The notes: a model not told the origin generated them from the sequence alone. A stretch of 64,000 nt of DNA from an uncultured Acidobacteriaceae bacterium (GCA_963773675.1 CAVZCG010000016.1:232745-296744), one strand, 5' to 3'; counted from the first letter of the stretch, positions 5,791 through 61,150 are shown. Translations and numbers: made by a program.

Positions 5791-5803
5791 CGTCAGCAAG
5801 AAT

Positions 5804-5869
5804 GGGAAGGGCACGACTTCAGTCGTGCCACAAATGCTGCCTAGTCCATCCCGCCTTCAGGCGCTGAGG
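5804..5869. repeat. REP-like double-hairpin element (family A)
   Basis: GGGAAGGGCACGACTTCAGTCGTGCC hairpin followed by CGCCTTCAGGCGCTGAGG hairpin. The same architecture recurs at 9201, 40336, 42582, 42960 and 43330. Confidence 0.8.
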
Positions 5870-5996
5870 TTGAGAGGCCGGAATCCGGTAGTGGACTGTT
5901 TTAACCCCGAATCCGCCACCCCGCGACACGCACCCTCCCTTGGTGGTATCTTCTTATCCTTACTAGAAACCCGTAAGGTTGGAGGAATTACCACTC

Positions 5997-6227
5997 ATGG
6001 CTCAGGTAAAAATCACCGTCCGTCCCAATGGCCCGTTCCGTGTGGAGGCGCCCGAAGGTTCGGTCGAACTCGTCGACGCCAACGGCACTCCGTACGACCT
6101 GACCGGCAAGCCCGCCTTTTCGCTCTGCCGCTGCGGAGGCTCGGTCAACAAGCCTTTCTGCGACGGCACCCACAGCCGCATCGGATTCCAGGGCGCGGAA
6201 TTAGCCGTCAAAAAAGCCGACGGCTAG
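5997..6227 (+). CDS. CDGSH iron-sulfur domain protein
   Basis: CRCGGSVNKPFCDGTH matches the CDGSH 2Fe-2S motif C-x-C-x2-S-x3-P-x-C-D-G-x-H. GGAGGA lies 10 nt upstream of the ATG at 5997. The ORF track starts at a TTG at 5979. Confidence 0.8.
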   Translation: MAQVKITVRPNGPFRVEAPEGSVELVDANGTPYDLTGKPAFSLCRCGGSVNKPFCDGTHSRIGFQGAELAVKKADG

Positions 6228-6243
6228 AGAATCGGGGATCCAG

Positions 6244-8205: not shown

Positions 8206-9113
8206 CTACGAGCAGCGCTTGGCGTGCGCCGAGGCTGCGCGAGATTGCGCGTCACACGAGAAGGGGTTCTTCCCAGGCGCAAAGGAACGCCGTAGTGGTG
8301 CGCAACTTCAGCCGCGCCACCGGCCAGAGCGACCGCCATAACAAGAAAGATCGCAACGCGGCGCGGAGCCTGCTCCCGGAACGGTGCGACGAGAGCGATG
8401 ATGGCGCCCACGATCAATCCCGTGATCAGCCCACCAATGTGCGCGGCGTTGTCGATGCCGGGCATTGCCGCTCCGAAGACAAGATTGTAAAAAACAAAAG
8501 CGCCCAGGCTGCGCAGCGTCCCAGAAAGCGCTGCCCGCGGCACAGAAAATTCTCCCAGTTTAAATGCGGCAAGCAGTGCGCCGGCGAGTCCAAAGATGGC
8601 CCCCGAAGCGCCCACGCTCGGCCCGTAGGGATGCCACGCAACGCTGGTCAAACTGGATCCCACGCCGCAGACAAGATAGATCGCCACGTAGGTCCAGCGT
8701 CCGTAGAGCGACTCGGCCAGCGCACCTAGATTCCACAGGCACCACATGTTGAATGCGATGTGAATGATCCCGCCATGAACGAACACGCAGGTGAGCAACC
8801 GCCACCATTCGCCGCTCAGCGTGAGCGGTCCCCAGTTGGCGCCCCAGAGAATGGTCTCCTGAGGCGAGAAATCCATGATGGTGGAACCGGCGAGGGCCAT
8901 GCCCAGAAACACCGCAACGCAAATGCCGAAGATGATCTGCGTAACGCCGATCGTGGATTCGCCACCCCGGACCCAAGGCGTGCGCATGACGGGTTGCGGT
9001 GCGTCGACGATTTCTCCGCGCTGTGCAGCCTCATGCTGCACGCACCACTGGCAAATCTTCTTGCCAAAAGAAAAGCCGGGGAGCTGTCGACCACATCGAA
9101 TGCAGTTTGCCAT
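8202..9113 (-). CDS. rhomboid-family intramembrane serine protease with an N-terminal zinc ribbon
   Basis: Motifs HGGIIHIAFNM, GASGAIFGL (GxSG) and AHIGG. N-terminal CIRCG...CQWC. Confidence 0.85.
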   Translation of the reverse strand: MANCIRCGRQLPGFSFGKKICQWCVQHEAAQRGEIVDAPQPVMRTPWVRGGESTIGVTQIIFGICVAVFLGMALAGSTIMDFSPQETILWGANWGPLTLSGEWWRLLTCVFVHGGIIHIAFNMWCLWNLGALAESLYGRWTYVAIYLVCGVGSSLTSVAWHPYGPSVGASGAIFGLAGALLAAFKLGEFSVPRAALSGTLRSLGAFVFYNLVFGAAMPGIDNAAHIGGLITGLIVGAIIALVAPFREQAPRRVAIFLVMAVALAGGAAEVAHHYGVPLRLGRTPSRVTRNLAQPRRTPSAARS

Positions 9114-43697: not shown

Positions 43698-44426
43698 TTA
43701 CGCCTCGTCCTTATTCGCTTTACCCGCGCCAGATTCTTTGGGCAGTCGCATGGTTTTTTCAGCGAGAAGGTAGACCGTATTCAACAAGTGCTCGACTACA
43801 TCAAAGGCAAGGTTCAATTCGTCAGACTTATGGCCCTTCACTTTATGGGCGGCTTCGTTACCCATGAATCGCAAATCGTGCAGGACCGTTGCCTCTTGTT
43901 GTGTAATCAGTTTTAGGGTGACCAGTGAATTAATTTTCTGGAACAGGTTAGCCCCAGTTGCACCCCTATCGTTACAAACCGTCTCAACTATCGCGCGAAT
44001 GCCAATTCCGGTAAGGACTGGCAGGCCTTGCATGAGCGCCGATCTGGCTTCTTCATAGATTTTCTGAAGCTCCCATGGGAGATAATAGATGTCGCCTAAT
44101 GGAGGGCGCCCGGCGATCCGGCCAGGGAACAGATCCCTTCGGGTGAGCAACTGACCTTCGGGGTCGGAATCCTCGCTGCACTGTGACTCCTTACAGAAAC
44201 TCAGAGTGAGACAACCCCGGCATTGCACAATCGAGTACGACTCCCACACCTGAATATCACCACTATCGTTTTCGTCGTCTGACGCAACGTTCGTGAGAAT
44301 TTCGTGGACGGTCGAACGACTGCATTCGCCACAAACGACGACGATGGTTTTGCCGCTTCTGTTGTTCAATGTGCGCTTCGCTGTGTGGCTCATCTTCACC
44401 TCGTTAGTGTTGCCGGACGAAATCAA
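43698..44426 (-). CDS. zinc-ribbon + DUF4145 domain protein (paralogue 2)
   Basis: N-terminal CGEC...CRGC ribbon. Helical C-terminal domain with LRFMGNEAAH, the (R/K)xxGNxxAH core also present in the neighbouring gene and in the HsdR N-terminus. Locally AT-richer than its surroundings by eye. Confidence 0.7.
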   Translation of the reverse strand: MISSGNTNEVKMSHTAKRTLNNRSGKTIVVVCGECSRSTVHEILTNVASDDENDSGDIQVWESYSIVQCRGCLTLSFCKESQCSEDSDPEGQLLTRRDLFPGRIAGRPPLGDIYYLPWELQKIYEEARSALMQGLPVLTGIGIRAIVETVCNDRGATGANLFQKINSLVTLKLITQQEATVLHDLRFMGNEAAHKVKGHKSDELNLAFDVVEHLLNTVYLLAEKTMRLPKESGAGKANKDEA

Positions 44427-44536: not shown

Positions 44537-45169
44537 CTAGGCTGGCCCCACTGCCCCGGACTTCTTTCTGTATTTTTGGAGCAGAAATGGAGCGACATAT
44601 ACGTACTCGGCTAGAGCACGAAAAAACTCCTCCATTGCCCATGTCATAGGCACCGTAAGTTTCTGGGTCGTGTTGTGTGCCCCAGAGTTGCCAAGACTGC
44701 GAAGTACCGAGGTTATCTCGGCGAGTACTGGCGGAATCTCGCCCTTATTGGCGAGCGTCTCCAGACGCTTCGCTAGGACTCCGGGTGGGACACCGCGGTC
44801 GTCGCACATTGCTTCTAACGCACGCCGAACCAGCACGGCAAATGCATTCGGCGAAATGTTCTGAATTCTTTTCGCCTCTTCGAAATTGGAAGCCACTGAA
44901 CGCGGGACGGACTCGTGTAGCGAGGCCCTATCAGGGTAAACGAGCGTCGCGAAATCAAATCCCGGTGGCAAGGGGCCGTCGTAGAGTGAGATATCATGGC
45001 ACGTTCCGCATTCGAAAGCTGTATAGATCGAAGGCGGGTCCGGCCCTTCGCTCAGGGTGCCATCTTCGTTGTAATAGCGGCTATCGTACTCGTGCTCGAA
45101 CACAACCTTTTGTGGGGTTTGATTACCACAGTGCGGGCAGATTAGAATACGCGACTTTTCAGCGTCCAT
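44537..45169 (-). CDS. zinc-ribbon + DUF4145 domain protein (paralogue 1)
   Basis: N-terminal CPHCG...CGTC ribbon. C-terminal helical domain EEAKRI...AFAVLVRRALEAMC...LRSLGNSGAH. Confidence 0.7.
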   Translation of the reverse strand: MDAEKSRILICPHCGNQTPQKVVFEHEYDSRYYNEDGTLSEGPDPPSIYTAFECGTCHDISLYDGPLPPGFDFATLVYPDRASLHESVPRSVASNFEEAKRIQNISPNAFAVLVRRALEAMCDDRGVPPGVLAKRLETLANKGEIPPVLAEITSVLRSLGNSGAHNTTQKLTVPMTWAMEEFFRALAEYVYVAPFLLQKYRKKSGAVGPA

Positions 45170-47479: not shown

Positions 47480-47555
<76 letters not shown>

Positions 47556-47655
47556 TTCTTTCAATCAGTTACGAATCTCAAGAACAAAACTTCGCCGCAC
47601 TTCGCCGCATTTGAGATAAAACGTTGAGGTTATGCCAGCCGGTTGGGCTCGCCCG

Positions 47656-47973
47656 TCAGGGTCGCGGCCGGGATTGGGCGATGGCATTGCGTACAGCGTT
47701 TTCGATTCGAACTCCCCTACGGGTGAACCCGAGTATGGGTACGATCTCAGCAATGATCTGGTCATCAGTTCTCAACTGACCATACAAACCGATCCAACTG
47801 ACCAGTTGGATCAATTCACTACTGCGATACTCGCCAATCGAGGTACGTACTGGAATTGGAAGACGAGGACCTCGTTGAGGTGCTGGGGATGCCGTGCTGT
47901 GATGATCACCGTTGCCATGATTCGATTCATCGAATTGTTCGGATGTCGTAATCATTGGGTCCTTTTTGTGCAA
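47656..47973 (-). CDS. hypothetical protein, possibly a gene remnant
   Basis: 105-aa ORF. Only the C-terminal ~45 aa (TDDQIIAEIVPILGFTRRGVRIENAVRNAI) look like a folded helical module; the rest is low-complexity. Confidence 0.3.
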   Translation of the reverse strand: MHKKDPMITTSEQFDESNHGNGDHHSTASPAPQRGPRLPIPVRTSIGEYRSSELIQLVSWIGLYGQLRTDDQIIAEIVPILGFTRRGVRIENAVRNAIAQSRPRP

Positions 47974-48019
47974 TAGATCTCATTCTGGGGTAGCATAATC
48001 GGTCCCCCAATGAAAACTT

Positions 48020-49558
48020 ATGCTTACTGGTGAGATTCGCAGTCAGATCGATCAGATTTGGAATGCCTTTTGGACCGGCGGTATTTCTAATCCCTTGGAG
48101 GTAATAGAGCAGATCACGTATCTGCTTTTTCTCAAGCGGCTGGATGAACTGGAAACTGCTGACGAACTCAAGGCCAATCGTGAAAGGAAGCCGCCACAGT
48201 ATCGCTTCTTTCCTCCGGGGAAAGATAGCAAGAAGCGTCCCTATCAGGACTTCCGCTGGAACCGGTTCAAGAATTTCGAAGGGCGAGAGATGTACACCGT
48301 CATCAGCGAGCATGTTTTTCCTTGGCTGAGGACGCTCGGGGGAGGCAAGACTACGTACTCGAAGCACATGGAGGGTGCACGCTTCACCATTCCAACTCCG
48401 GCTCTGCTCTCCAAGGTTGTGGACATGATCGACAAGGTGCCGATGGAAGACCGAGACACTAAGGGCGATCTTTACGAATACATGCTGGGCAAGATTGCCA
48501 GCGCGGGGCAGAACGGTCAGTTTCGCACGCCAAGGCACATCATCCGGCTGATGGTGGAAATGGTCGAGCCCAAGCCTAACGACGTTGTCTGCGATCCGGC
48601 ATGTGGAACGTGCGGGTTTCTGGTGGCTGTGGGGGAATCGCTGCGCGAGCGGCATCCGGAAGTAGTGCTGAAGGAGAAGCTGAGAGAGCATTTTCATCGC
48701 GAACTGTTTCACGGGTTTGACTTCGACAACACGATGCTGCGCATCGGCAGCATGAACATGCTGCTGCACGGAGTGGAGAACCCGGACATCACTTATCGCG
48801 ATTCGCTCGCGCAGGATCACGCGGGAGAAGAAGAGAAGTACACGCTGGTGCTAGCCAATCCGCCGTTCGCCGGGTCGCTCGATTATGAGAGCTGCGCGAA
48901 GGACTTGCAGCAGGTGGTCAAGACCAAGAAGACCGAACTGCTTTTTCTGGCGCTGTTTCTGCGACTACTCAAACCCGGCGGGCGAGCTGCCGTCATCGTG
49001 CCAGATGGAGTTCTCTTCGGGTCAAGCAATGCGCACAAGAGCCTGCGCAAGATGCTCATCGAAGATCAGAAGCTCGACGCGGTGATCTCGCTGCCCGGCG
49101 GTGTGTTCAAGCCCTACGCCGGAGTCTCCACCGCCATCCTGCTCTTCACCAAGACCAACTCCGGCGGCACCGATCAGGTGTGGTTTTACGACGTGGAAGC
49201 GGACGGCATGTCGCTGGACGACAAGCGCACGCCGCTACTTAGCGAAGACAAACTGGGTGCGATGCCAAGAACGGAGCTGACCGCGACCGAGCACGATAAG
49301 AATAACCTGCCCGACATTCTCGCCCGGTGGAGAAGACGCGACGGTAGCGAAGGCAAGCGTCCGCGCACTGCGCAGAGCTTCTGCGTGCCCAAGGCCGACT
49401 TGGTAGCGCAAGGCTACGACCTCAGCCTCAACCGCTATAAAGAGGTTGTGCACGAGGATGTGGCGCATCGCCCTCCGAAGGAGATTCTTGCGGACCTTGC
49501 CAAGCTGGAGGTGGAGATTCAGCAGGGGATGAAGGAGTTGGAGGGGATGCTGGGATGA
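48020..49558 (+). CDS. hsdM: type I restriction-modification system methyltransferase subunit
   Basis: HsdM N-terminal domain (IWNAFWTGGISNPLEVIEQITYLLFLKRLDE), SAM motif VCDPACGTCGF, catalytic NPPF (LANPPFAG). Confidence 0.95.
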   Translation: MLTGEIRSQIDQIWNAFWTGGISNPLEVIEQITYLLFLKRLDELETADELKANRERKPPQYRFFPPGKDSKKRPYQDFRWNRFKNFEGREMYTVISEHVFPWLRTLGGGKTTYSKHMEGARFTIPTPALLSKVVDMIDKVPMEDRDTKGDLYEYMLGKIASAGQNGQFRTPRHIIRLMVEMVEPKPNDVVCDPACGTCGFLVAVGESLRERHPEVVLKEKLREHFHRELFHGFDFDNTMLRIGSMNMLLHGVENPDITYRDSLAQDHAGEEEKYTLVLANPPFAGSLDYESCAKDLQQVVKTKKTELLFLALFLRLLKPGGRAAVIVPDGVLFGSSNAHKSLRKMLIEDQKLDAVISLPGGVFKPYAGVSTAILLFTKTNSGGTDQVWFYDVEADGMSLDDKRTPLLSEDKLGAMPRTELTATEHDKNNLPDILARWRRRDGSEGKRPRTAQSFCVPKADLVAQGYDLSLNRYKEVVHEDVAHRPPKEILADLAKLEVEIQQGMKELEGMLG

Positions 49559-50685
49559 GTCCCGTCTCAACTCCATGGCCTATTGTCCCCCTTCACGAGA
49601 TTTGCAGTCCGAAGCAGTGGCCGACAATTCCACAGACCGCTTTCCTACCGGAAGGCTATCCCGTCTACGGCGCAAACGGGGTGATTGGTTACTACTCCGA
49701 GTTTAATCATGAGAAGCCGACGGTACTGATAACTTGTCGCGGCGCTACATGTGGGACGATTAATTTGTGCGCCCCGAAATCGTACGTGACCGGCAATGCG
49801 ATGGCGCTTGACGATTTAGATGAGACTAGAGTTGAGCTCCGATATTTGGTCCGAGCGCTTCGGAACGGAAGTCTGCGCAAAGCGATAAGCGGTACGGCAC
49901 AACCTCAGATCACTCGACAAGGGCTGACGGTGATTTCAATCCCGCTCCCGCCTTTGCCACAGCAGCGGCGGATTGCCGAGGTGCTGGATCGGGCGGAGGC
50001 GTTGCGGGCCAAGCGCCGCGCCGTCCTCGCCAAACTCGATACCCTCACCCAATCCATCTTCCTCGACCTCTTCGGCGACCCCGCTACGAATCCGAAGGGC
50101 TGGCCGGTTCACTTGCTTTATGAGGTCGTGAAACAGGGAACCATCGTAACCTACGGCATCGTGCAAGCTGGGGAAGAATATCCGGCTGGGATTCCTTACA
50201 TTCGGACGGGCGACATCGTAGATGGAGAAATAGTACAACACGATTTGCGCCATACAGATCCCGCAATCGCCGCGAGATTTCTCAGGTCTCGGGTCGAAGC
50301 GGGCGAGATCGTAATTAGCATCCGCGCCACTGTCGGGACGACCGCTGTGGTCCCGCCGGAACTGGACGGAGCGAACCTTACCCAAGGTACTGCCCGTATT
50401 GCGCCGGGAAGTCTTGTCGACAGGACATACTTGCTCTACTATTTGCGCGCTTCTGGAACGCAGCACTGGATAAGCCTTCAAATCAAGGGCGCGACGTTTC
50501 GGGAAATTACCCTAACTCGACTCAGAGAGCTTCCGGTTCAAGTTCCGCCCATGTCTCTGCAGTGCGACTTCGCCCGTCGCATCGCCGCAGTTGAAACATT
50601 GAGAACTGTGCACAGGGCCTCCATCGCCAAACTGGACGCGCTCTTCGCCGTCCTTCAGCATCGCTCCTTCCAAGGGGAGCTGTGA
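49555..50685 (+). CDS. hsdS: type I restriction-modification system specificity subunit
   Basis: ATGA overlap with hsdM. Two target-recognition domains separated by the conserved helical spacer LPPLPQQRRIAEVLDRAEALRAKRR, with a matching C-terminal helix. Confidence 0.9.
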   Translation: MSPVSTPWPIVPLHEICSPKQWPTIPQTAFLPEGYPVYGANGVIGYYSEFNHEKPTVLITCRGATCGTINLCAPKSYVTGNAMALDDLDETRVELRYLVRALRNGSLRKAISGTAQPQITRQGLTVISIPLPPLPQQRRIAEVLDRAEALRAKRRAVLAKLDTLTQSIFLDLFGDPATNPKGWPVHLLYEVVKQGTIVTYGIVQAGEEYPAGIPYIRTGDIVDGEIVQHDLRHTDPAIAARFLRSRVEAGEIVISIRATVGTTAVVPPELDGANLTQGTARIAPGSLVDRTYLLYYLRASGTQHWISLQIKGATFREITLTRLRELPVQVPPMSLQCDFARRIAAVETLRTVHRASIAKLDALFAVLQHRSFQGEL

Positions 50686-50686
50686 A

Positions 50687-51481
50687 ATGAAGCTCTTCTT
50701 CGACAATCAGCCGGTAGCTCAACTGAATGACGCACTTTGCCGCTACAGGCCGGAGGAATTTGAATCGCCGACACGTTCGACCGTCCCACTTATCTCTTCA
50801 CTCAGCGATGGTAACGTGTGGAACACGATTTCGGGACAGTTGGCTGTAGAGTACTGTTCCGTCGAGGCGCATCTAGAATACAAAGTGAAACCTCCCCTGG
50901 GCCACGGCACCGCGTCGCATACCGATGTGATGTTGATCGATGGAAGCCGCGCCATCGCCATCGAAGCGAAATGGACAGAACCGCGATACGGCGAGGTGGG
51001 CGATTGGGTCAATCAAGTTCGCGAAGGGGTCAATCACGACAAAGATGCGCAAAACCGGCGCGACGTAATGAACGGCTGGCTCTCACTGCTGCAGCTTCAT
51101 GCAAATAAGAAGCTGTGCTTGGAGGATTTCAGTTCCGCCGTCTACCAGATGGTTCACCGAGCGGCATCTGCGTGTCATCCGGGACGGCTACCTACTCTGG
51201 TCTATCTTCAGTTTTGTCCCCTACCCGACGGGTGTGGTCTGGAATCCCGCGTAATGGATGATCTACGCTATCTTCATTCGCTGCTTGGGACGCCAGCAGG
51301 CTTTCCTTTCTGGCTGGTGAAGGTGGAGGCCAAGCCCAATACCGCGTTCGAGCGGATCAGAAAACTGCCTAAAGGCTCGCCGAACACTGCTGATGCTGTG
51401 CGCGCGGCCTTGTTGGGTGAGTTGCTTTTCGATTTCACAGACATTTCCGTCTTTCCCGTGCAGGAGGCAGATTGCCGTTAA
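50687..51481 (+). CDS. uncharacterised PD-(D/E)XK-like protein embedded between hsdS and hsdR
   Basis: 264 aa. Candidate nuclease core E(YKV)...SHTDVMLI...AIAIEAKW (E / D / ExK). No P-loop. The ATG is 1 nt after the hsdS stop, and the stop overlaps the hsdR TTG start by 10 nt. Confidence 0.6.
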   Translation: MKLFFDNQPVAQLNDALCRYRPEEFESPTRSTVPLISSLSDGNVWNTISGQLAVEYCSVEAHLEYKVKPPLGHGTASHTDVMLIDGSRAIAIEAKWTEPRYGEVGDWVNQVREGVNHDKDAQNRRDVMNGWLSLLQLHANKKLCLEDFSSAVYQMVHRAASACHPGRLPTLVYLQFCPLPDGCGLESRVMDDLRYLHSLLGTPAGFPFWLVKVEAKPNTAFERIRKLPKGSPNTADAVRAALLGELLFDFTDISVFPVQEADCR

Positions 51482-54400
51482 GCGCTTCCAACTTCAGCTT
51501 TCTCCAAGCGGAGTGGCCGCAGCTCTTTGCCGAAGGGCAAAAGGCTGAAGCGCTGGTCGTCCCCGATCCACGCACCGCTTGTTTCTACGCCCGACGGACG
51601 CTGGAGCTAGCTGTAACGTGGCTCTACAAGAGCGACTCGGCGCTCAAGTTGCCCTATCAGGACAATCTCAGCGCGCTCATCCACGAGCCGAGCTTCAAAG
51701 CCACAGTCGGACAGAAAATCTTCATCAAGGCAAAGCTGATCAAGGATTTGGGCAATCTGGCAGCGCACAGCCACAAGCCTTTGCAGCAACTGGACTCGAT
51801 GACCTCGGTGCGAGAGCTGTTTCATATTTGCTTCTGGCTGGCGCGAACATATTCGAAGGCGGAGAAGCCAGCCGATGGCCTGACTTTCAATCCGATGCTG
51901 CTGCCGAAGACTTCACCCGTCCCGCCGCAGACTTTGGCGCAATTGCAGCTACTCGAAAAGCAATTGGCGGAGAAAGACTCCAAACTCGGCGAACTGTTAA
52001 CGGGCAAAGCCACGCTGGATGCCGAACTCGAACGCCTGCGCACCGAAATTGCCGCGATCAAGAAGCAGAACGAAGCCACTCCGGACGAACACAACTACTC
52101 CGAAGCCGAGACACGCGACTACTTCATTGACTTGCTGCTGAAGGAAGCAGGCTGGGCGCTGGACAAGAAGCAAGATCGGGAATATCCGGTCACGGGCATG
52201 CCCAATGAAAAAGGCGAGGGCTTCGTTGACTATGTGCTTTGGGGTGACGACGGCAAGCCGCTGGGTCTGGTCGAGGCCAAGCCCACCAAGCGCGATGCCC
52301 GCGTGGGCCAGCAGCAGGCACGACTCTACGCCGATTGCTTGGAGAAGCGGTTCGGTCAGCGCCCCGTCATTTTCTACAGCAATGGCTACGAGCATTGGAT
52401 TTGGGACGACCGAAATTATCCCCCGCGCTCTGTTCAGGGCTTCTACACAAAAGATGAGCTGGAACGACTGATTCAGCGGAGAAGCACGCGGACGCCGTTG
52501 GGCGCTACGGAACTCAACAAGGAAATCGTTGAGCGCTTCTATCAGGAGCGGGCCATCCGGCGTATTGGCGAAGCATTTGAGAAGGACCACGAGCGCAAAG
52601 CTTTGGTGGTGATGGCCACCGGCGCTGGCAAGACTCGCACAGTGGTTGCATTGTGCGATCTCATGATGCGCTGCAACTGGGTAAAGCGCGTGTTGTTTCT
52701 GGCCGACCGTGTTGCTCTCGTGAAACAAACGACGAACGTCTTCAAGCGCTTCTTACCATCGGCCGCGGCAGTGAACGTGCTGGAGAATCCCGACGAGATG
52801 GCAGATGCGCGAGTGCTGGTGTCGACGTACCCCACCATGCTGCGACTTATCGACGAGACAAAAGAAGGCAAGAAACAGTTTGGTCCTGGGCATTTTGATC
52901 TAGTTGTCATTGACGAGGCGCACCGATCGGTCTACCAAAAGTACAAAGCCATCTTTGAATATTTCGACTCCTTCCTTATAGGTCTTACGGCAACACCTAA
53001 AGATGAGGTCGATCACAACACATACGGTCTCTTCGACCTGGAAGATGGCGTACCGACGGACGCTTACGGTCTGGAGGAGGCAGTGCGGGATCGGTTCCTC
53101 GTCCCGCCAAAGGCTGTGTCGGTGCCTTTGAAATTTCAACGCGAGGGGATGAAATACGACCAGCTCAGCAAAGAGGAGCAAGAGCGATGGGACGAGATCG
53201 AGTGGGATGAGGACGGAAATGTCCCCCGAACCGTTGAACCAGAGGCTCTGAACCGTTGGTTATTCAATAAGGACACTGTGGATAAGGTCCTTGAACACCT
53301 CATGAGATCCGGGCAGAAGGTGGCGGACGGAGATCGGCTAGGCAAGACGATCATTTTTGCGAAGAACCACGATCACGCCGTATTTATAGCCGAACGATTT
53401 GATGTGAATTATCCGCGCTATGCCGGTCATTTTGCTCGGGTAATTGATTTCAAGGTGGAGTACGCGCAGTCGTTGATTGACGACTTCTCTACCGTCTCGA
53501 AAAGCCCGCACATCGCCATATCGGTCGACATGCTCGATACCGGCATCGACATCCCAGAGATTGTTAATCTTGTCTTTTTCAAGATGGTACGGTCAAAAAC
53601 CAAGTTCTGGCAGATGGTGGGACGGGGTACACGCCTGCGGCCGGACCTATTCGGACCGGGCCGCAACAAGCAATATTTCTACGTCTTCGACTATTGCCAG
53701 AACCTCGAATTCTTCAACCAGAATCCCGAAACGGTCCCTGGCGCCGGCAGCGAGTCCCTGACGAAAAAACTATTTGCCAGCCGGGTGGAATTGATCACCG
53801 AACTGGACAAACATGCCGACCGCGAGGCGGGATCGGAGTTGCGAAGTGAGGTGGCAGAGCGATTGCGGCAGGAAGTGGAGAAGATGAATGTCGGTAACTT
53901 CATCGTTCGTCCCAAACGAAAGCTGGTGGAAAAATATGCCGACGCCAAGGCTTGGGAAACCGTCGGGTCGGATGAACAAGCGGAGCTGGTCAACGATGTG
54001 GCCGGTCTACCCTCCGAGTTGTTGGATGAGGATCAGGAAGCAAAGCAGTTCGATTTGTTGATGTTGCGTTTGCAGCTAGGACTTCTGCGACATGAGAAGT
54101 CGTTTGTACGGTGGAGCAATGATGTCCGCGAGATCGCTGGCGCGGTTGGGGAGAAGATAAGCATTCCTATGGTCCGCGCAGAACTGGAGCTCATTATCGA
54201 GGTACAGACGGATGAATTCTGGCAGGACGTTACCACCTCAATGTTGGAGAATGTCCGCAAACGGTTACGCAGTCTGGTGAAATTTGTTGAAAAGACCAGG
54301 CGTCCTCGGATCTATACAGACTTTGTCGATGAGATGGGCGAGGGCACTGTTGTTGAGCTAACCGGATTCGACGCTGGGCATGATGTCGAGCGCTTCCGTG

Positions 54401-54849
54401 ACAAAACTCAGCAGTTTCTGAAGGCTCATGGCGATGACCCGGTGATTCACAAGCTGCGGTGGAACGAACGGTTGAGCAAGGAAGACCTCGACATACTGGA
54501 ACAGATCCTGATTGAGGCCGGCGCGGGGACGAAGCAAGACCTGCTAAAGGCACGAGCAGCCGGAGAGTTGGGGTTGTTAGTGCGGTCGATGGTGGGCATG
54601 GACCGCGAAGCAGCGAAAAGAGCATTTGATGGCTTCCTGGCGGGCAAAACTCTAAGTGCAAACCAAATCCAATTCATCAACTTGATCGTGGACTACCTGA
54701 CTCAAAGCGGCTGGATGCGAGCGGGCCAACTCTACGAGTCGCCCTTCACCGACCGTAACTCCAAAGGAGTCGAAGGGATATTCAACTCCGAACAAGTGGA
54801 CCAGTTGGTAGGGATACTGGATGATATCCGGATGAGGGCGATCGTTTAG
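51472..54849 (+). CDS. hsdR: type I restriction endonuclease subunit R with an N-terminal DUF4145 domain and an EcoEI-type C-terminal domain
   Basis: AGGAGG precedes the TTG start. DUF4145-like N-terminus (…IKDLGNLAAH…), coiled coil, nuclease domain (GFVDYVLW...LGLVEAKPTKRD), SF2 motor (MATGAGKT, DEAH), and a C-terminal domain resembling EcoEI_R_C (…MVGMDREAAKRAFDGFL…QIQFINLIVDYL…). Confidence 0.93.
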   Translation: MPLSASNFSFLQAEWPQLFAEGQKAEALVVPDPRTACFYARRTLELAVTWLYKSDSALKLPYQDNLSALIHEPSFKATVGQKIFIKAKLIKDLGNLAAHSHKPLQQLDSMTSVRELFHICFWLARTYSKAEKPADGLTFNPMLLPKTSPVPPQTLAQLQLLEKQLAEKDSKLGELLTGKATLDAELERLRTEIAAIKKQNEATPDEHNYSEAETRDYFIDLLLKEAGWALDKKQDREYPVTGMPNEKGEGFVDYVLWGDDGKPLGLVEAKPTKRDARVGQQQARLYADCLEKRFGQRPVIFYSNGYEHWIWDDRNYPPRSVQGFYTKDELERLIQRRSTRTPLGATELNKEIVERFYQERAIRRIGEAFEKDHERKALVVMATGAGKTRTVVALCDLMMRCNWVKRVLFLADRVALVKQTTNVFKRFLPSAAAVNVLENPDEMADARVLVSTYPTMLRLIDETKEGKKQFGPGHFDLVVIDEAHRSVYQKYKAIFEYFDSFLIGLTATPKDEVDHNTYGLFDLEDGVPTDAYGLEEAVRDRFLVPPKAVSVPLKFQREGMKYDQLSKEEQERWDEIEWDEDGNVPRTVEPEALNRWLFNKDTVDKVLEHLMRSGQKVADGDRLGKTIIFAKNHDHAVFIAERFDVNYPRYAGHFARVIDFKVEYAQSLIDDFSTVSKSPHIAISVDMLDTGIDIPEIVNLVFFKMVRSKTKFWQMVGRGTRLRPDLFGPGRNKQYFYVFDYCQNLEFFNQNPETVPGAGSESLTKKLFASRVELITELDKHADREAGSELRSEVAERLRQEVEKMNVGNFIVRPKRKLVEKYADAKAWETVGSDEQAELVNDVAGLPSELLDEDQEAKQFDLLMLRLQLGLLRHEKSFVRWSNDVREIAGAVGEKISIPMVRAELELIIEVQTDEFWQDVTTSMLENVRKRLRSLVKFVEKTRRPRIYTDFVDEMGEGTVVELTGFDAGHDVERFRDKTQQFLKAHGDDPVIHKLRWNERLSKEDLDILEQILIEAGAGTKQDLLKARAAGELGLLVRSMVGMDREAAKRAFDGFLAGKTLSANQIQFINLIVDYLTQSGWMRAGQLYESPFTDRNSKGVEGIFNSEQVDQLVGILDDIRMRAIV

Positions 54850-54862
54850 GAACGCAATTTGT

Positions 54863-55180
54863 TTGGGGAGGCGGATAGTGAGGACTGAATACGAAAGGCT
54901 GACCACAACCATCAAGCGGCCATGGCTGGCAGAAATTATCGCGGGTACGAAAAAGATCGAATACCGCGCGATCAAACCTTATTGGACAGAGCGGCTGAAT
55001 AATGTTGCGAAGCCGTTTGAGCTTCGTTTGCTGAATGGAATGAATCCGCCTGTCCCGGAAGTGACAGTGCTGATCCATAAGGTCACGAAGAATCGCCGCG
55101 AAAGAGTTTACGAACTGCACATCAAGAAGGTGCTCGGATATAAGCATTGGGACAAGCGGACGAAGAGCGTTAGGAAGTAG
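54863..55180 (+). CDS. ASCH (PUA-like) domain protein
   Basis: IKRPWLAEIIAGTKKIEYRAIKPYW matches the N-terminal ASCH pattern (…qPwa.lI..G.KtiE.R…). The probable start is GTG 54878 after GGGGAGG. It begins 14 nt after the hsdR stop. Confidence 0.55.
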   Translation: MGRRIVRTEYERLTTTIKRPWLAEIIAGTKKIEYRAIKPYWTERLNNVAKPFELRLLNGMNPPVPEVTVLIHKVTKNRRERVYELHIKKVLGYKHWDKRTKSVRK

Positions 55181-55221
55181 TTTCATTTTCGGCTGACCTT
55201 GCCGCGATAGTTACACCTCCC

Positions 55222-56400
55222 TCACAATTTTTCCTCAGTGCTGGAAAAGACCGCGGCCGTGCGGGAATTAAGAGCGGTCCTCACGCTCGCTGGCACAGAT
55301 TGCATGTACACATCAGAGGTTGTCTTCGCGCTCTTGTGTCTCAGTGCTCCTTGAGCATCTTTAACAGTCCCGTGAAATTGAAGATCAGTTCCAACAGTCC
55401 TGCGCATCACCTGAAACGTAACCAGGCGGCGAGGAATGCCTAGCTTGTCCGCGATCGGGTGGATTCGCCTTTCCACAAAGTTGGTTGAATCGAATGGAAC
55501 AGCCTGTCCTTTTCGCAGACCTTTGCCTTTTGTAGGAAACATTAGGGCTTGTGGACTCGCGTCAGGGCAGACAGCCTGCCAACGGGCAATTATCGGTTGG
55601 ATCAAATCGGGGACCGGGACCAGAGCTCGGCTTTCGACAGTTTTGAGTTTGCCCTCCTGCAAGTGGCCCTCAAAAGCCGTGCTCTCGATGGCAAGATAAT
55701 GGTGTTGCCACGATTCCCACTTCAGACCAAATACTTCGCCGGTCCGCAGGGCACAGAATACACCGACTGCGAAAACGCATCTGTCCATCGGATGCTCGAT
55801 CGCGTTGAGCAGAGCCATGATCGTCCGTGCCTCCAGAACGCTCCTGTCCGGCGACTTAGTCTCCGGCATCCTTAATCTTCGAGCTGGACTTTTAGCCAAG
55901 AAATCGAGATCTACGGCATTGTTGTAGATTGAGCGCATATTTACATATGTATGTCGAACAACCGAATCAGAGAAGGTCTTTGCCAGGCTGTTCAGGTGCG
56001 TTTGCAGCTCAAAAAGGCCGATGGAACTCAGATTACGATCCCCAAACTTCTCCAAAATGTAGCGATGAATTTCGTATGTTGTCGTCTTCTTGGTGGTGGC
56101 ACGGCACGTCATCATTGGAAGATGACGCTCGTTCACAAACCATCTCAGTGTGGAGTTGCCATCGGCTGCCTCGGCTGGGGCTATTTGAGCCGAATTGTTG
56201 TCTGCGGCAATTGCTTCATGCAGTTTTCTCTGCGCCTCAAACTTGGTCATCTCGGACTTTGGTCCGATCGCTTTATTTTTCTGCTTAACGGTCCAACTTT
56301 CGGTTAGCGGATCCTTACACCAAACGCGATACTTGCCATACCACATTTTGCGGCGCTTTCCATGTAGGTACACAGAGCCGCGCTGAAATTCCAGAGGCAT
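55222..56400 (-). CDS. site-specific tyrosine integrase
   Basis: Start ATG 56400 after AAGGAA. Catalytic residues are in the expected order: ALRTGEVFGLKWES (Arg I), HVMRRTVGT-like H-x-x-R (FQVMRRTVGTDL), LRHKSAKTTSDVYMQ (His II / Tyr). Confidence 0.85.
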   Translation of the reverse strand: MPLEFQRGSVYLHGKRRKMWYGKYRVWCKDPLTESWTVKQKNKAIGPKSEMTKFEAQRKLHEAIAADNNSAQIAPAEAADGNSTLRWFVNERHLPMMTCRATTKKTTTYEIHRYILEKFGDRNLSSIGLFELQTHLNSLAKTFSDSVVRHTYVNMRSIYNNAVDLDFLAKSPARRLRMPETKSPDRSVLEARTIMALLNAIEHPMDRCVFAVGVFCALRTGEVFGLKWESWQHHYLAIESTAFEGHLQEGKLKTVESRALVPVPDLIQPIIARWQAVCPDASPQALMFPTKGKGLRKGQAVPFDSTNFVERRIHPIADKLGIPRRLVTFQVMRRTVGTDLQFHGTVKDAQGALRHKSAKTTSDVYMQSVPASVRTALNSRTAAVFSSTEEKL

Positions 56401-56462
56401 ATCAGGTTCCTTTTTGAGATGGAGAGGAGGGCTGAGGATTACCAGCCCTCTATGACATGAAG

Positions 56463-56990
56463 CTAGGAATTGTTCGCACGGGTTGACTGATGAGCCCTGG
56501 ACAAGAAAGTCAAGCGCAGACATCGGGCCCTCACAGGTGCGATTCCAATACGCTTGCACACTGCCAGCAGCGCGCGGTTGAGAGAGGACGCCAGCGATTG
56601 GAAGCCGGAATTAAACAGGCGGGCGCTTCCGGGATCCTTTGTGCGAATCTGCATCAGTCGAGTGACAAGCGGATCTGGAATCTGGAACGCACGGATGCCG
56701 GCTTTCCCATTAACTGTCATAACTTTCTGGCCTAGGTCGATATCGGCCCACCTCAGAGCTGCGATTTCCTGCATTCGCAATCCTGTCTGGACTGCAATGA
56801 GAGCGATATCTGCCAGTGAAGAATCGGATTCCTTTCCAAGTTCGTCGATAATGCGTTCGGCTTGTTCAAAACCAAGCGCTTCAGCCTTGCTCGACAGCTT
56901 TTTAGGATGTGAGACGTGATCAGCGTGCCGGACAAGGCGAGCGAGGCCTTTGCAGTACTTGCACATGTTGATTTCCTTTCTGTAGTCCAT
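56463..56990 (-). pseudogene. truncated/degenerate tyrosine-recombinase-like gene (no catalytic Tyr region)
   Basis: Box I is present (TGLRMQEIAALRWADIDL). The H-x-x-R box is degenerate (RCLRLTFLS) and the ORF stops about 10 codons later. The start is ambiguous (56990 or 56966). Confidence 0.5.
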
Positions 56991-57024
56991 GAGCGTGCAG
57001 CTGTGACTATGTGATTTCTGAGTG

Positions 57025-57327
57025 CTAGTGGCGCCGGGAGGCGCCGGAATGGTCGTCGCGTTGCGATTCAATAAACTGCTGTACATCGGTGGGACGGAAG
57101 CGAAGAAGAGGACCGAGCTTCACTACAGGTATTTTGGGGGAGCGACGGGTAGCATGGTCGCGGACCCAGCGTTCCGATACACCAAGGAGTTCCGCAGCCT
57201 GCAGGGCGTTCCACAGATGTTCGGAGGCTGATAAAGAGGAGGGTGAATTCACGTAGGTTCCTTTCGGAGAGATGGCAGTTTGTAAGTCGAGGAGGTTGGG
57301 TGGGGCCATCGAATGGCTCGATGACAA
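57025..57327 (-). CDS. excisionase/AlpA-like helix-turn-helix protein
   Basis: LQAAELLGVSERWVRDHATRRSPKIPVVKLGPLLRFRPTDVQQFIE is the MerR/AlpA-type excisionase HTH pattern. Confidence 0.55.
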   Translation of the reverse strand: MSSSHSMAPPNLLDLQTAISPKGTYVNSPSSLSASEHLWNALQAAELLGVSERWVRDHATRRSPKIPVVKLGPLLRFRPTDVQQFIESQRDDHSGASRRH

Positions 57328-57336
57328 AAATCAGGG

Positions 57337-58212
57337 CTAGGAGAAGTCCCAGTTATTCCACATTCCATCCTCGTTGAACGATGTTTCGTCGTTGAGGATG
57401 CTATTGATTAGTCCATCCGTGCCGCGGGCGAGGAAGCGTTCGTATTCCAAGGAGACGAGTTGGTCACGGTAGCGCGGGAAGAGACGCAGATTCAAAGCAT
57501 CGTTGGATCTCAATCCCGCTTCAAAATCCATTAAACGATTGAAGAGCGCGCAATCCTTGCACCCTGTGGCACCCTTCGCAGGACGAGGGGACTCCCAGAC
57601 CTTCTTCATTTCAACGAGGCACTTGGCAAAACGCGGGTAATCCAGTTCGACTTCCGTTGCACGGAAATTGAATGGAACTGTAATCCCAGTGTCTGTCATA
57701 TGAGAAAGGGGGTCTGTCTTGAAGAACTCATGTTGAATCTCACAGAAAATAAGGCCAGCGCTCCCAACCTCACCGATCTCCACAGCTTCAGTGACCCAAC
57801 TGTATCCAATCAGCTGGATGTGATATTGCGGATGAAATTTCGCGCCACCACCATCGGCCCGCGCGGTCTTCAGGTCTATCAGCGCAATGGTTTCGTCCTT
57901 GTTGTAAAGCATCATGTCCGGCCGTGCGGTTACAAGAACACCTGTCTCGTGCATCGCTTCCATGCTGAAAGGAAATGTCACCGGTTCGGTGCAATTGGAG
58001 AAAAGGCCGAAGCCCTTCGGCAGGTGTTTATGCTTCTGAAGGTAGGTAAGGATGAAGGCTTTTTCAACGGCCTCCAGGTAGAACATCACTCCGGGCATGC
58101 CCATTTGGAACGGCAGCTTCTTCAGGCGCAAGAGATACCAGGCGCAGCGTGGACAGTATGTTTCTAACTCAACCTGGCCCGCGTTGCGGGCACTGAGTTT
58201 TAGTGTGGCCAT
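57337..58212 (-). CDS. PD-(D/E)XK nuclease, Cas4/RecB-like
   Basis: Motifs RPDMMLY (D), ALIDLKT (D/ExK) and YHIQLIGY (QxxxY). Cys pairs at both ends (CPRC near the N-terminus, CKDC near the C-terminus) are compatible with an Fe-S or Zn site. Confidence 0.65.
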   Translation of the reverse strand: MATLKLSARNAGQVELETYCPRCAWYLLRLKKLPFQMGMPGVMFYLEAVEKAFILTYLQKHKHLPKGFGLFSNCTEPVTFPFSMEAMHETGVLVTARPDMMLYNKDETIALIDLKTARADGGGAKFHPQYHIQLIGYSWVTEAVEIGEVGSAGLIFCEIQHEFFKTDPLSHMTDTGITVPFNFRATEVELDYPRFAKCLVEMKKVWESPRPAKGATGCKDCALFNRLMDFEAGLRSNDALNLRLFPRYRDQLVSLEYERFLARGTDGLINSILNDETSFNEDGMWNNWDFS

Positions 58213-58455
58213 CGATTCACCTCAGTTAGGACGTTAAGTTGCACGAGACGCAGAAAAGTCAAAGGAGGGAGCTTGAACATAAGGACAGAAACCCGAGACC
58301 GGCCTGGCACTCGGGCATTTAATTTCAATGCTGGTCATGGCGAAGATTCTTCATGTTGGGTGATTGCTGACGTGTGGTTCGAACCGCTTTTATCGGAATG
58401 GTGAAGCAGCAGCAGGAAAGTTTGGAGACCAGCGATTTTTTCCGCCTTCTGTTTG

Positions 58456-58473
58456 TGGGTAGTATAGGGTTCT
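58456..58473. repeat. 18-bp direct repeat, left copy
   Basis: TGGGTAGTATAGGGTTCT, identical to 61213-61230. It lies 31 bp beyond the 3' end of the 297-aa recombinase gene. Confidence 0.9.
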
Positions 58474-58504
58474 TTAGGACCTTCCCCGGGACGCTAAAAG
58501 CTTT

Positions 58505-59398
58505 TTAGTCATTGATCAGCTCCATAGCTGCAAAGTAGTCCGCGGAGAGTTTCTGCCGTTTGATTTTGAAATATCCCTGGGTGGTATTAAATGAGGCGTG
58601 CCCCATCAGGTCCTTCAATGTGATCGAGGGTAAACCTGCATTTGCCAATCTGGTTGCATACGTGTGCCGTAAAGAATGTATATGGACAGGCGGGAGCCCT
58701 AGGCGCTTGCACCAGCGTTCCAGGATGTATTGGATCTCGCGGCGGCTCACTCTCATTCCACGATTGGAGATGAACAAAGCATTGCAGCTGTCTTGTCTTG
58801 TACGAAGGTAGTCACCCAGAACCTGGAGTGTAGGTAGATCCGTCAGAAACGCGCGCTCTTTATTTCCTTTGCCAATGACAGAACCAGAACCAAGGACGCG
58901 AACACTACCATCCGGTTGCTGCTTTCGCTCGACGTTTATTGAGTCCCGGTTCAATTGATGCAGTTCAGCAAGGCGCAGCCCTGTGGTAACGATGAGCGTG
59001 ATGATTGCCTTATCACGAAGGTTGGCGATGCCAGAAAGCAGGCGCTCTAGAGGTTCGTCTTCGATTCCCTTGGGATCGGCCCGGCGGCGACGAGGACGCG
59101 CGACAGCCCTCACCGGGTTACGCACTCTGCCATCGGTTTGCACTCTCAGAAACTCATAGTAGCTCGACAACGTGGCGAGCTTCCGCCAGATGGTGCTTGG
59201 GCTGAGCTTCTCTGCGTCTGTTCTCGATCCCAATTCCCGGACATACTCCTGGATCAACTGTGGCCGAGCCGCAGTGGCTCGCACATGCCGCTCCCGGAGA
59301 AACGCTTCGAAATCGGAAAGGTCAGACTTATAGGCGTTGACGGTATTGGCCGAATAACCTCTAGCTGCGATGTAATCAAGAAACTCTTTGGTATTCAT
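58505..59398 (-). CDS. tyrosine recombinase (XerC/D-like)
   Basis: SAM-like N-domain (YSANTVNAYKSDLSDFEAFL), TGLRLAELHQL (Arg I), HSLRHTYAT (H-x-x-R), LMGHASFNTTQGYF (His/Tyr). Confidence 0.9.
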   Translation of the reverse strand: MNTKEFLDYIAARGYSANTVNAYKSDLSDFEAFLRERHVRATAARPQLIQEYVRELGSRTDAEKLSPSTIWRKLATLSSYYEFLRVQTDGRVRNPVRAVARPRRRRADPKGIEDEPLERLLSGIANLRDKAIITLIVTTGLRLAELHQLNRDSINVERKQQPDGSVRVLGSGSVIGKGNKERAFLTDLPTLQVLGDYLRTRQDSCNALFISNRGMRVSRREIQYILERWCKRLGLPPVHIHSLRHTYATRLANAGLPSITLKDLMGHASFNTTQGYFKIKRQKLSADYFAAMELIND

Positions 59399-59529
59399 AG
59401 TGGATCGTTCCTTGTGTTGAAGGCGGACGTGGGAGGAATTGGCTTCGGAGGGTAGGTACTGGTCTGTAATCTGCCTGTTTTGTGCACCGTGGACGAATTG
59501 CGCATAAACGCTCTTATGTGCAATTCCGG

Positions 59530-60951
59530 CTAGGCCGCAGAATCGAGAGGCTTTGTTGAAGGAGTGGAATTCTTCCTGGCAAATTCCTCCAGGGACTGCG
59601 TGATTGTGCCACCCTCGTCAGCCGATTCCTTGATGCGCTGCATCGCGCGATCGAAGTCACGCCGGATTGTGCCCTTTTGCAGCCTCACGTATTTTTGCAT
59701 CGAGTCAAAACTCTTCCATCCGCCAACGGCCATGATGGTTGAAACGTCCGCTCCGGCATTGGCTAACGAACTGGCAGCCGTGTGGCGCATACGATGGTAG
59801 CTAAATTTCTCCAGACCGAATTCGTGGGCGTGATGCCTCGATTTCTTGCAAAGGATCGTGTTGAATTTGTCTTGAAGCTGCATGACTCTCACGGGTCTCT
59901 TGAGGCTGTTGTAGAACAGTCCGTCGTGACCGCAGGTGGGATCGCGCTCGGCCAGCCACTCTTCCAGGTAGCTTCGGGTTTTTTCCGCAAATGGAACCCA
60001 CCGCTCAGTCTCCGTCTTGTTTGGCAAACGGATAAAGAGCTGTTGCCCTTTGAGATCGACGTCTTGCAGACGCAGCCGTGCCAGCTCACCGATCCGCACT
60101 CCCGATTCTTGTCCGATAGCGATGGCCAGCTTCGCTTGAGTATCGCCCCGATCCTCTAAGACCCTCCAGATCAGAGCCAGATCATCTTGGGAGTAAGGAC
60201 GAGCTGTGTGCTTGCCGCACGTTTGCTTGTGAAAACCCGCGATTATGGGATTCGACCTAGAGCGACGGCCCTCGACGATCATCCAATTGAAGAAAATCAC
60301 GAGGAAGCGGACTGCCCGGTTGGGGGTAGATCCCCGTGCGTTCGACCAAGCAATGAACCTGGTAATCAGTTTCGGGTCAACCCTGTTGAGGGATCGAACC
60401 CTCTGAGCGTTAAGGTACTCGAAAAACAGGAGCAAATCGCAACGAACAGCCCGAATGCTGGCAGGTTTGTAATGTCCCGGGCAAAACGTCGACAGATATT
60501 CGTTCAGGATTGCGAGGAATCGCCCGGCGCGCGCGATCATATTTTGGGTTCTGAGATGCTGACCAAAGTGATCCTGACCGCAGTAAGTAGGTTTTTCCGC
60601 ACGACAAGGGGGGCGCTCGACGAGTTTGCCGCAGACGAGACAAGGCACCTCCACTGAGCCGGCGCCGCAACCAGCCTTACTTTCACATTTCTTGCTGCAG
60701 TAAAAAAAGCGGCGATTTGGATAGAAGCTACCGGCACGGGCGAACTCCGTACAGCCCTCCCGGTCGCATTTCCTTTCACCAGGTTGAACGACAATCAAAG
60801 TCCGGTCACCAGCGTGCACCGTCCGGCGGCACTCGGGATTGTCACAGGTAAAATGCTTCTTGCCTAAGTAATAGTCCATCTCTGGTAGAGGAGTGTGGCA
60901 GGCATCACACTCCTTTTCTCCAAGAGAAGCATGACGCTTACGGTTATACAT
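59530..60951 (-). CDS. tyrosine recombinase with an N-terminal Cys-rich (multi zinc-ribbon) extension
   Basis: Start ATG 60951. N-terminal CDAC...CDNPEC...CDREGC...CSKKC...CLVCG. Catalytic SGVRIGELARLRLQDVD, HRMRHTAAS, and GGWKSFDSMQKYVR (Tyr). Confidence 0.85.
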   Translation of the reverse strand: MYNRKRHASLGEKECDACHTPLPEMDYYLGKKHFTCDNPECRRTVHAGDRTLIVVQPGERKCDREGCTEFARAGSFYPNRRFFYCSKKCESKAGCGAGSVEVPCLVCGKLVERPPCRAEKPTYCGQDHFGQHLRTQNMIARAGRFLAILNEYLSTFCPGHYKPASIRAVRCDLLLFFEYLNAQRVRSLNRVDPKLITRFIAWSNARGSTPNRAVRFLVIFFNWMIVEGRRSRSNPIIAGFHKQTCGKHTARPYSQDDLALIWRVLEDRGDTQAKLAIAIGQESGVRIGELARLRLQDVDLKGQQLFIRLPNKTETERWVPFAEKTRSYLEEWLAERDPTCGHDGLFYNSLKRPVRVMQLQDKFNTILCKKSRHHAHEFGLEKFSYHRMRHTAASSLANAGADVSTIMAVGGWKSFDSMQKYVRLQKGTIRRDFDRAMQRIKESADEGGTITQSLEEFARKNSTPSTKPLDSAA

Positions 60952-61150
60952 TTTTGGTCCTTTCTTGGACTCGTTTGTAAGTTTCCACAAGTCGGACAAG
61001 GTCGCGTTCGTCGAAGCGGCGCTGATGTTCGATATGGAGATCGGGTAACTGTCCGGTGGCAACCAGGTGCTCTATTTGAGGCTCATCGAGGTTCAGAGCC
61101 TGGGCCACTTGGTCCAGAGTCAACAACTGGAGGCGGCGTGTTCGCTCCAT
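60944..61150 (-). CDS. small MerR/excisionase-type HTH protein
   Basis: MERTRRLQLLTLDQVAQALNLDEPQIEHLVATGQLP... It overlaps the start of the 474-aa recombinase gene by 8 nt. The longer ORF to 61351 would read through the 18-bp repeat. Confidence 0.55.
   Translation of the reverse strand: MERTRRLQLLTLDQVAQALNLDEPQIEHLVATGQLPDLHIEHQRRFDERDLVRLVETYKRVQERTKNV

Follow-up and report, generated by a model that had tools for sequence, protein, structure and literature searches.

Nuclease cargo within type I restriction-modification (R-M) operons is already established. The type IC system EcoprrI carries one additional gene, prrC, which is flanked by hsdS and hsdR and co-expressed with the R-M genes (PMC12707154). 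TgvAB, a type IV system that resembles GmrSD and is nested in the VPI-2 type I operon of V. cholerae, works without HsdR activity and is thought to complement the type I system by hitting modified DNA; tgvAB is commoner outside type I operons, with 79 five-gene operons against 1,341 tgvAB matches (PMC11411939). The principle of "guilt-by-embedding", by which a role in defence is predicted for uncharacterised genes found inside such systems, has been formalised for type I, BREX and DISARM systems by Payne et al. 2024 (bioRxiv 10.1101/2024.01.29.577857). Here we describe a gene, designated X, that sits within a type I operon, after hsdS and before hsdR, on a 64,000-nucleotide (nt) stretch of DNA, hereafter the window, from an uncultured Acidobacteriaceae bacterium (GCA_963773675.1, CAVZCG010000016.1:232745-296744). 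X shares with the candidates of Payne et al. the architecture of an uncharacterised gene nested in a type I R-M operon. Its product is a putative endonuclease whose family has an existing Pfam entry and a nuclease fold assigned by prediction. What is new is the strong, position-specific tie of this family to two type I lineages, together with partnerships with DUF429, with a small protein designated Y, and with GmrSD; neither the type I association nor these partnerships appeared in the papers and databases searched.

The operon and the sites at its junctions are as follows.

48020..49558, plus strand: hsdM, type I methyltransferase subunit, 512 amino acids (aa); Pfam HsdM_N 3.6e-18, N6_Mtase 3.4e-61
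49555..50685, plus strand: hsdS, specificity subunit, 376 aa; Pfam Methylase_S 2.8e-24, two stretches matched
50674..50679, plus strand: GGGGAG, Shine-Dalgarno-like, within the 3' end of hsdS and 7 nt before the X ATG; read from sequence
50687..51481, plus strand: X, 264 aa, DUF6946-related PD-(D/E)XK putative endonuclease; from Pfam PF22187, alignment and AlphaFold model
51462..51467, plus strand: AGGAGG, Shine-Dalgarno sequence of hsdR, within the 3' end of X; read from sequence
51472..54849, plus strand: hsdR, 1125 aa, TTG start; Pfam DUF4145 (N-terminal), HSDR_N, ResIII, Helicase_C, EcoEI_R_C

The system is assigned to type I by the presence of HsdM, HsdS and HsdR, each with its characteristic Pfam domains, in one operon. 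The four genes are co-directional in the order hsdM-hsdS-X-hsdR. The first junction is an ATGA overlap of 4 nt. The hsdS stop codon, TGA at 50683-50685, is separated from the X ATG at 50687 by a single nucleotide, and the X stop codon, TAA at 51479-51481, lies beyond the hsdR TTG at 51472, for an overlap of 10 nt. The coordinates, the three junctions and the two Shine-Dalgarno-like sites had been given in an earlier note made from the sequence alone, and all were confirmed. Public contigs of identical sequence, on which genes were called independently, have the same start positions (L046: X 4360-5154, hsdR 5145-8522). A search for terminator-like sites on the plus strand from 47500 to 55300 returned none. 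A sigma-70 promoter scan of the operon returned zero sites, an uninformative result for a sequence that is probably acidobacterial. HsdR keeps an intact nuclease motif (VDYVL...LVEAKP, the D...EAK of HSDR_N), which rules out X as a replacement for a missing HsdR nuclease. On another contig that encodes an identical X protein (L045, 10786-14162), hsdR was called as two genes, one of 332 aa with DUF4145 and HSDR_N and one of 783 aa with the helicase part, which suggests a frameshift variant or an assembly error in that sample.

X matches Pfam model PF22187 (DUF6946, clan CL0236) over residues 59-163 with 28.4 bits against a cutoff of 27 (E 1.3e-6), a borderline score, although a precomputed PF22187 match is found on most of the 120 X homologues listed. 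DUF6946, which corresponds to "component 6,732", comes from a "dark" component of AlphaFold-DB described by Durairaj et al. 2023; its members are described as putative restriction endonucleases, for which structure comparison with EndoMS pointed to a conserved (E/D)-Xn-(E/D)XK active site, and no genomic-context link to type I R-M is reported (PMC10584680). X shares this motif. It would form a branch of the family with its own conserved N-terminal SPTRST motif and an alpha/beta extension of about 90 residues at the C-terminus. A word-indexed search found 588 homologues of X; searching exhaustively with a profile gave 775 clusters at 50% identity with E<=1e-3, and 348 of these reach E<=1e-30. 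The family comes almost entirely from uncultured environmental bacteria; by tblastn, neither the 72,556 plasmids nor the 50,697 phage records searched gave a match to X. Decay or disruption by an insertion sequence (IS) affects several copies, namely L028, L031, L035 and L038/L039. The last pair, from Bradyrhizobium centrolobii and B. neotropicale (L038 6780-8629, L039 1620-3469), are the sole matches in these cultured rhizobia, and X is broken there by insertion of a DDE_3 transposase and a frameshift. An intact embedded X was found in one cultured strain only, Paludisphaera soli JC670 (L027, contig NZ_JAALJI010000007.1).

An alignment of 40 sequences, with identities of 44-89%, shows E64 (in HLEY), D80 (in SHTD) and E93-x-K95 (in IEAKW) to be invariant. 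These residues, noticed earlier in HLEYKV, SHTDVMLI and AIAIEAKW as a restriction-endonuclease-fold signature, have the spacing D-x12-E-x-K, which fits the pattern (E/D)-Xn-(D/E)-X-K, and are candidate catalytic residues. Also invariant in the 40 sequences are S27, S31, T32, W96, E98, Y101, Y153, Q154, H157 and R158. The AlphaFold model of X is a confident single-domain alpha/beta structure, with a predicted local distance difference test (pLDDT) score of 93.3 and a predicted template-modelling (pTM) score of 0.90. In the motif region, the order of elements (helix 42-51, strands 60-67, 77-85 and 88-95, helices, then strand 168-177) fits a PD-(D/E)XK core. The C-terminal half had been described as helical. 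The model does contain helices there (117-136, 153-163, 188-199, 232-244), but it is not purely helical, as these alternate with strands (168-177, 208-217, 248-257). Foldseek searches against viral models gave marginal matches at best (E 8.8e-4, template-modelling scores of 0.25-0.29), mostly to proteins named restriction endonuclease, exonuclease or DUF2726.

PrrC occupies the same place between hsdS and hsdR as X, but the two proteins differ in kind. PrrC is an ABC-ATPase-type tRNA nuclease, while X has a predicted DNA-nuclease fold, no P-loop or Walker A sequence, and no match to an ABC-ATPase or anticodon-nuclease domain in Pfam, NCBIfam or PADLOC. Searches of X against NCBIfam, PADLOC-DB v2.0.0 and PHROGs returned no match of any kind. 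The view of X in the earlier note, as PD-(D/E)XK-like and not PrrC-like, therefore holds up, with its one profile match falling above the gathering score in a nuclease clan.

To survey the genomic context of relatives, 44 loci were taken from species-representative genomes, 80 from metagenomes and 15 from exact-protein look-ups; most contigs are metagenome-assembled genomes (MAGs) or metagenome fragments. Loci were found through two conserved peptide patterns and thus sample the subfamily of X itself and not all of DUF6946. Open reading frames (ORFs) were called mechanically and compared with profiles of HsdM, HsdS and HsdR, which had been built iteratively from seeds in several type I families. 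Removing redundancy at 90% identity and requiring at least 1.5 kb on both sides left a context set of 47 homologues, which fall into the following arrangements.

20 of 47: hsdM/S, X and hsdR in this order on the same strand
1 of 47: hsdM-hsdS-X at a contig end
1 of 47: X-hsdM-hsdS
1 of 47: hsdS-hsdR, then X at a distance
1 of 47: X, then hsdR at a distance
2 of 47: hsdR-like gene upstream only
21 of 47: no hsd gene

Because 20 non-redundant homologues share the placement of X after hsdS and before hsdR, the arrangement is far beyond chance. Six more adjoin type I genes, for 26 of 47 with a type I association. The homologues thus do not lie mostly outside R-M contexts, nor do profile searches place X in a non-nuclease family; either outcome would have counted, in the earlier note, as a refutation.

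The position of X is precise as well as recurrent. Among 33 non-redundant loci with hsdS upstream, X starts from -4 to +6 nt from the hsdS stop codon in 24, while one or two other genes stand between hsdS and X in seven. The start of hsdR is often overlapped by X, by 4 or 10 nt. The clade to which the window's X belongs (56-89% identity) consistently shows the order hsdM-hsdS-X-(extra cargo)-hsdR. In some relatives, the large ORFs downstream of X represent a second HsdR architecture by Pfam, with HSDR_N, SWI2_SNF2, T1R_D3-like and T1RH-like_C domains. Embedded X thus occurs with HsdR proteins of two architectures, one with EcoEI_R_C and an N-terminal DUF4145 and the other with T1RH-like_C, and therefore in at least two distinct type I lineages.

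Comparison of X with its host operons gives a mixed picture of inheritance. For L057, identity is 90% in HsdM and 83% in HsdR, but only 56% in X. Within one operon lineage the mean pairwise identity of HsdM is 77% and that of X 49%; from one type I lineage to the other the relationship is reversed, X at 41% exceeding HsdM at 23%. The divergences of X and HsdM are correlated (Mantel rho 0.44, reached in 0 of 2000 permutations). We read these comparisons as suggesting partial co-inheritance of X with its operon, combined with transfer between operon families and rapid evolution, since X is more alike than HsdM between families and less alike within them.

Copies of X away from R-M genes occur in diverse settings. 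In Terracidiphilus (L050/L051, 6923-8795), a stand-alone X and a RES-Xre toxin-antitoxin pair lie together between mraY and murF/murE. The insertion lies in the otherwise conserved dcw cell-wall cluster, and a 71-aa ORF overlaps the start of X. Elsewhere, unlinked X is found beside a Gp49/HTH pair, directly after McrBC (L016), after a SIR2 gene (L023), near GmrSD (L044), or among housekeeping genes (L030, L036, L053). A pooled Pfam scan covered 79 neighbours from 12 loci, comprising eight unlinked loci, three with hsdR only (L034, L134, L135) and one with no hsd gene (L018). It found integrases, transposases, HsdR fragments, GmrSD and a TOTE-system primase, and no DNA methyltransferase family among the 25 listed. 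X as a classical type II restriction endonuclease with a neighbouring methyltransferase is ruled out for the stand-alone copies, as no methyltransferase is seen nearby. In a simple neighbour-joining tree of X, unlinked copies are interleaved with embedded ones, and the stand-alone proteins P0020, P0032, P0045 and P0063 keep E64, D80, E93 and K95, as do all 40 aligned members. Because intact unlinked copies are nested among embedded ones, X is viable and conserved even where neither an R-M system nor a methyltransferase adjoins it.

Several genes recur beside X, both inside and outside type I operons; their positions are given below.

DUF429 (PF04250) beside X: L008 8744-9772, L009 2759-3685, L082 6019-6945, L085 7767-8693, L114 1563-2642
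Protein Y: L013 3503-4042, L059 7768-8298, L069 3158-3745, L074 2774-3319, L087 898-1380, L092 1802-2146
GmrSD beside X: L007 8765-10888, L059 8285-10396, L081 50-2158, L092 3-1022, L121 2078-4288

In one unlinked clade (L008, L009, L082, L085), X and a downstream DUF429 gene form a two-gene operon with a 4-nt overlap; L114 has the order hsdM-hsdS-DUF429-X-hsdR. Two proteins of about 540-560 aa, P0163 and P0165, are fusions with DUF429 N-terminal to X. We take DUF429 to be RNase H-like. Protein Y, of about 160-195 aa (typically about 180) and without a Pfam match, is found in nine loci directly against X or overlapping it, on one side or the other. A type I gene is present on the contig in eight of these, the exception being L092, a contig of 2.1 kb. 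X and protein Y may be two components of one module, although the window has no copy of protein Y. Genes of the GmrSD type IV family directly adjoin X both within type I operons and on short contigs where no hsd gene is visible, and in the two checked with Pfam, L007 and L059, GmrSD has a C-terminal DUF5655. In one further protein, P0121 (555 aa), an N-terminal domain of about 290 residues with no Pfam match and with the motifs FVSSNPS and EAVHCKS is fused to X. Apparent long fusions in L038/L039 and L109 are ORF-extension artefacts, caused by the IS (DDE_3) insertion and frameshift and by a neighbouring SDR gene, respectively; only the DUF429-X fusions and that of P0121 look real.

The interval between hsdS and hsdR in relatives also holds genes for DUF3800, GmrSD with DUF5655, YhcG/DUF1016, a NucS_C/YhcG-like nuclease, DUF6088 with AbiEii, and unknown small proteins. 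Where other cargo is present, X usually stays beside hsdS, and the extra genes follow it (L054, L059, L013, L017). These observations mark the hsdS-hsdR interval as a cargo slot, and the 20 embedded copies among 47 support it as a recurrent home of the X family. The description of X in the earlier note as a "new cargo type" was overstated, given the GmrSD, YhcG/DUF1016, NucS-like, AbiEii and DUF3800 genes in the same slot and the documented case of TgvAB (PMC11411939). To judge from the absence of a PADLOC-DB match and, as weak evidence, from a part of the supplementary tables in which DUF6946, PF22187 and PDDEXK were not found, X itself does not seem to be one of the 145 candidates curated by Payne et al. 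2024.

The surroundings of the window operon point to a mobile setting. One feature lies just upstream:

47481..47555, plus strand: tRNA-Asn(GTT), found by ARAGORN; hsdM begins 465 nt downstream

On the 3' side of hsdR are at least four tyrosine-recombinase genes on the minus strand (55222-56559, 56463-57086, 58505-59398, 59530-61062). The same interval, 55222-61062, includes two HTH_17 genes and a PDDEXK_1 gene (57337-58212, minus strand), and integrase Pfam matches are present on the identical public contig as well. With tRNA-Asn upstream and tyrosine-recombinase genes downstream, the R-M operon sits in a tRNA-flanked integrative island. A second copy of the tRNA-Asn 3' end that would delimit the island was not found within the window. 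Farther upstream, two adjacent paralogous genes on the minus strand (43698-44426 and 44537-45169) encode CxxC zinc-ribbon-like N-termini followed by DUF4145. This domain is also fused to the N-terminus of the window HsdR (residues 25-111), and is N-terminal in all HsdR proteins of EcoEI_R_C-type operons that carry X.

The explanation we favour, tentatively and at somewhat less than an even chance, is that X, from a divergent branch of the DUF6946 family of putative endonucleases, is catalytically competent and acts as an autonomous accessory nuclease that has repeatedly settled in a permissive hsdS-hsdR slot, as have TgvAB and GmrSD. X would be transcribed with the operon, with its translation coupled to hsdS across the 1-nt gap and into hsdR through the 10-nt overlap, and such coupling would mean that X is made whenever the R-M complex is made. 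It would add to the island a second nuclease activity that is independent of HsdR. This activity would be expected to spare normal host DNA, because many relatives live without any methyltransferase, and would most probably be aimed at DNA that the type I system cannot restrict, that is, modified, non-canonical or foreign DNA structures. A modification-dependent or foreign-DNA-specific substrate range is the simplest supposition for a protein in which no reader domain is visible.

X would then parallel the embedded type IV systems. Nuclease cargo that is found in type I operons and also stands alone is common to TgvAB, GmrSD, RloF and, as a predicted nuclease, X, which has no cognate methyltransferase when it stands alone. 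TgvAB and GmrSD differ in combining a DUF262 NTPase with a His-Me nuclease and in having proven function; the predicted fold of X is different, with no recognisable modification sensor. A second comparison is with Mrr, a PD-(D/E)XK type IV enzyme with an N-terminal winged-helix reader domain, encoded beside the hsd genes in the immigration control region of E. coli. Both Mrr and X, the latter by prediction, are PD-(D/E)XK proteins linked to type I systems and without a cognate methyltransferase, but Mrr lies beside the operon and X inside it, and no Mrr_cat similarity was detected in X with Pfam.

A number of results weigh against X as an autonomous nuclease, some of them touching the nuclease assignment and others its autonomy. 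A Foldseek search of the PDB with the X model found no significant solved relative (best E 0.3). Searches of PDB chains with the X sequence and with the 40-sequence profile gave only chance-level matches, to metallo-beta-lactamases and one uncharacterised protein. The assignment to a nuclease fold rests on the borderline Pfam score, the invariant motif and the published structural argument for the parent family, from which we consider it well motivated. Of the modified-base reader domains DUF262, SRA, EVE, YTH and Mrr_N, none was detected in X, where DUF6946 was the only domain found. As to autonomy, the embedded fraction of X, about 45-55%, is far above that of TgvAB. The near-invariant position after hsdS and the correlation of X with HsdM could equally reflect a tie to the type I complex, whether functional or physical. 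Finally, because the stand-alone copies are mostly on MAG contigs, their genomes may have a type I system elsewhere.

These last points lead to a rather unlikely alternative, in which X is wired to the type I system. It would be co-assembled with HsdM2S1 by virtue of the coupling, and would serve either as a suicide or back-up effector, analogous to PrrC and let go once phage anti-restriction proteins disable the complex, or as an additional nuclease subunit that the methyltransferase core recruits. The two versions fare differently. The first, which we consider unlikely, has a latent, toxic X held by the type I complex and freed by an anti-restriction protein of the Ocr, ArdA or Stp type, leading to abortive infection. 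X does occupy the operon position of prrC, where its tight coupling to hsdS and hsdR would favour co-assembly, and the high embedded fraction (20-26 of 47) and the correlated divergence of X and HsdM agree with such a role. X also evolves two to three times faster than the HsdM and HsdR of its lineage, as the sensor or effector in an arms race would. A toxin without its guard, however, should kill its host or decay, and the 21 of 47 copies that have no nearby hsd gene keep their catalytic residues and are nested among embedded ones. PrrC is described as almost exclusively embedded (bioRxiv 10.1101/2024.01.29.577857), and the linkage of X is not near-exclusive. The existence of partners and fusions other than Hsd proteins (DUF429, protein Y, GmrSD) likewise speaks against guarding by a type I complex, as does the lack of similarity to PrrC or RloC, with no P-loop and no PADLOC or NCBIfam match.

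It is more doubtful still that X has no part in defence, whether as a selfish or mobility-associated endonuclease that tolerates the slot or as a structure-specific repair nuclease, similar to EndoMS/NucS, that is transferred along with the islands. DUF6946 has been linked structurally to the mismatch endonuclease EndoMS (PMC10584680), some homologues reside in the housekeeping neighbourhoods noted above, several copies are decayed or IS-disrupted, and integrases and transposases are common nearby. Yet the neighbours of non-embedded X are enriched for defence and toxin-antitoxin genes (RES-Xre, Gp49/HTH, McrBC, SIR2, GmrSD, TOTE primase, hsdR), X found no match among the plasmid and phage records, and precise, coupled placement in two operon families points to selection on co-expression and not to random insertion.

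The least probable version, in which X docks on HsdM2S1 to cut near the recognition site or to process translocation-stalled DNA and so supplements HsdR, gains from the close spacing to hsdS, seen in both type I lineages and in 24 of 33 loci, from the retention of X beside hsdS when extra cargo is present, and from the correlated divergence of X and HsdM, but is hard to reconcile with an intact HsdR nuclease motif that leaves no missing activity to supply, with the absence of X from most type I systems, with stand-alone X and the operons and fusions of X with DUF429, and with the seven loci where other genes intervene between hsdS and X.

On the evidence of sequence and context, X is a credible candidate for an accessory gene of defence, and does not amount to a system of a new kind. 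Few nested accessory defence genes of type I R-M operons have been characterised so far. Because about half of its members, an unusually high share, are embedded, and because two type I lineages conserve their coupled position after hsdS, the X family ranks among the better candidates for a test of whether nested cargo is independent, as for TgvAB, or wired to the R-M system, as for PrrC. Characterising X would also assign a function, the first, to a DUF family. Should X prove to be only an autonomous nuclease, the result would be incremental; if it is a wired effector or subunit, it would count as the first DNase guard of the PD-(D/E)XK type in type I R-M, conserved across two lineages.

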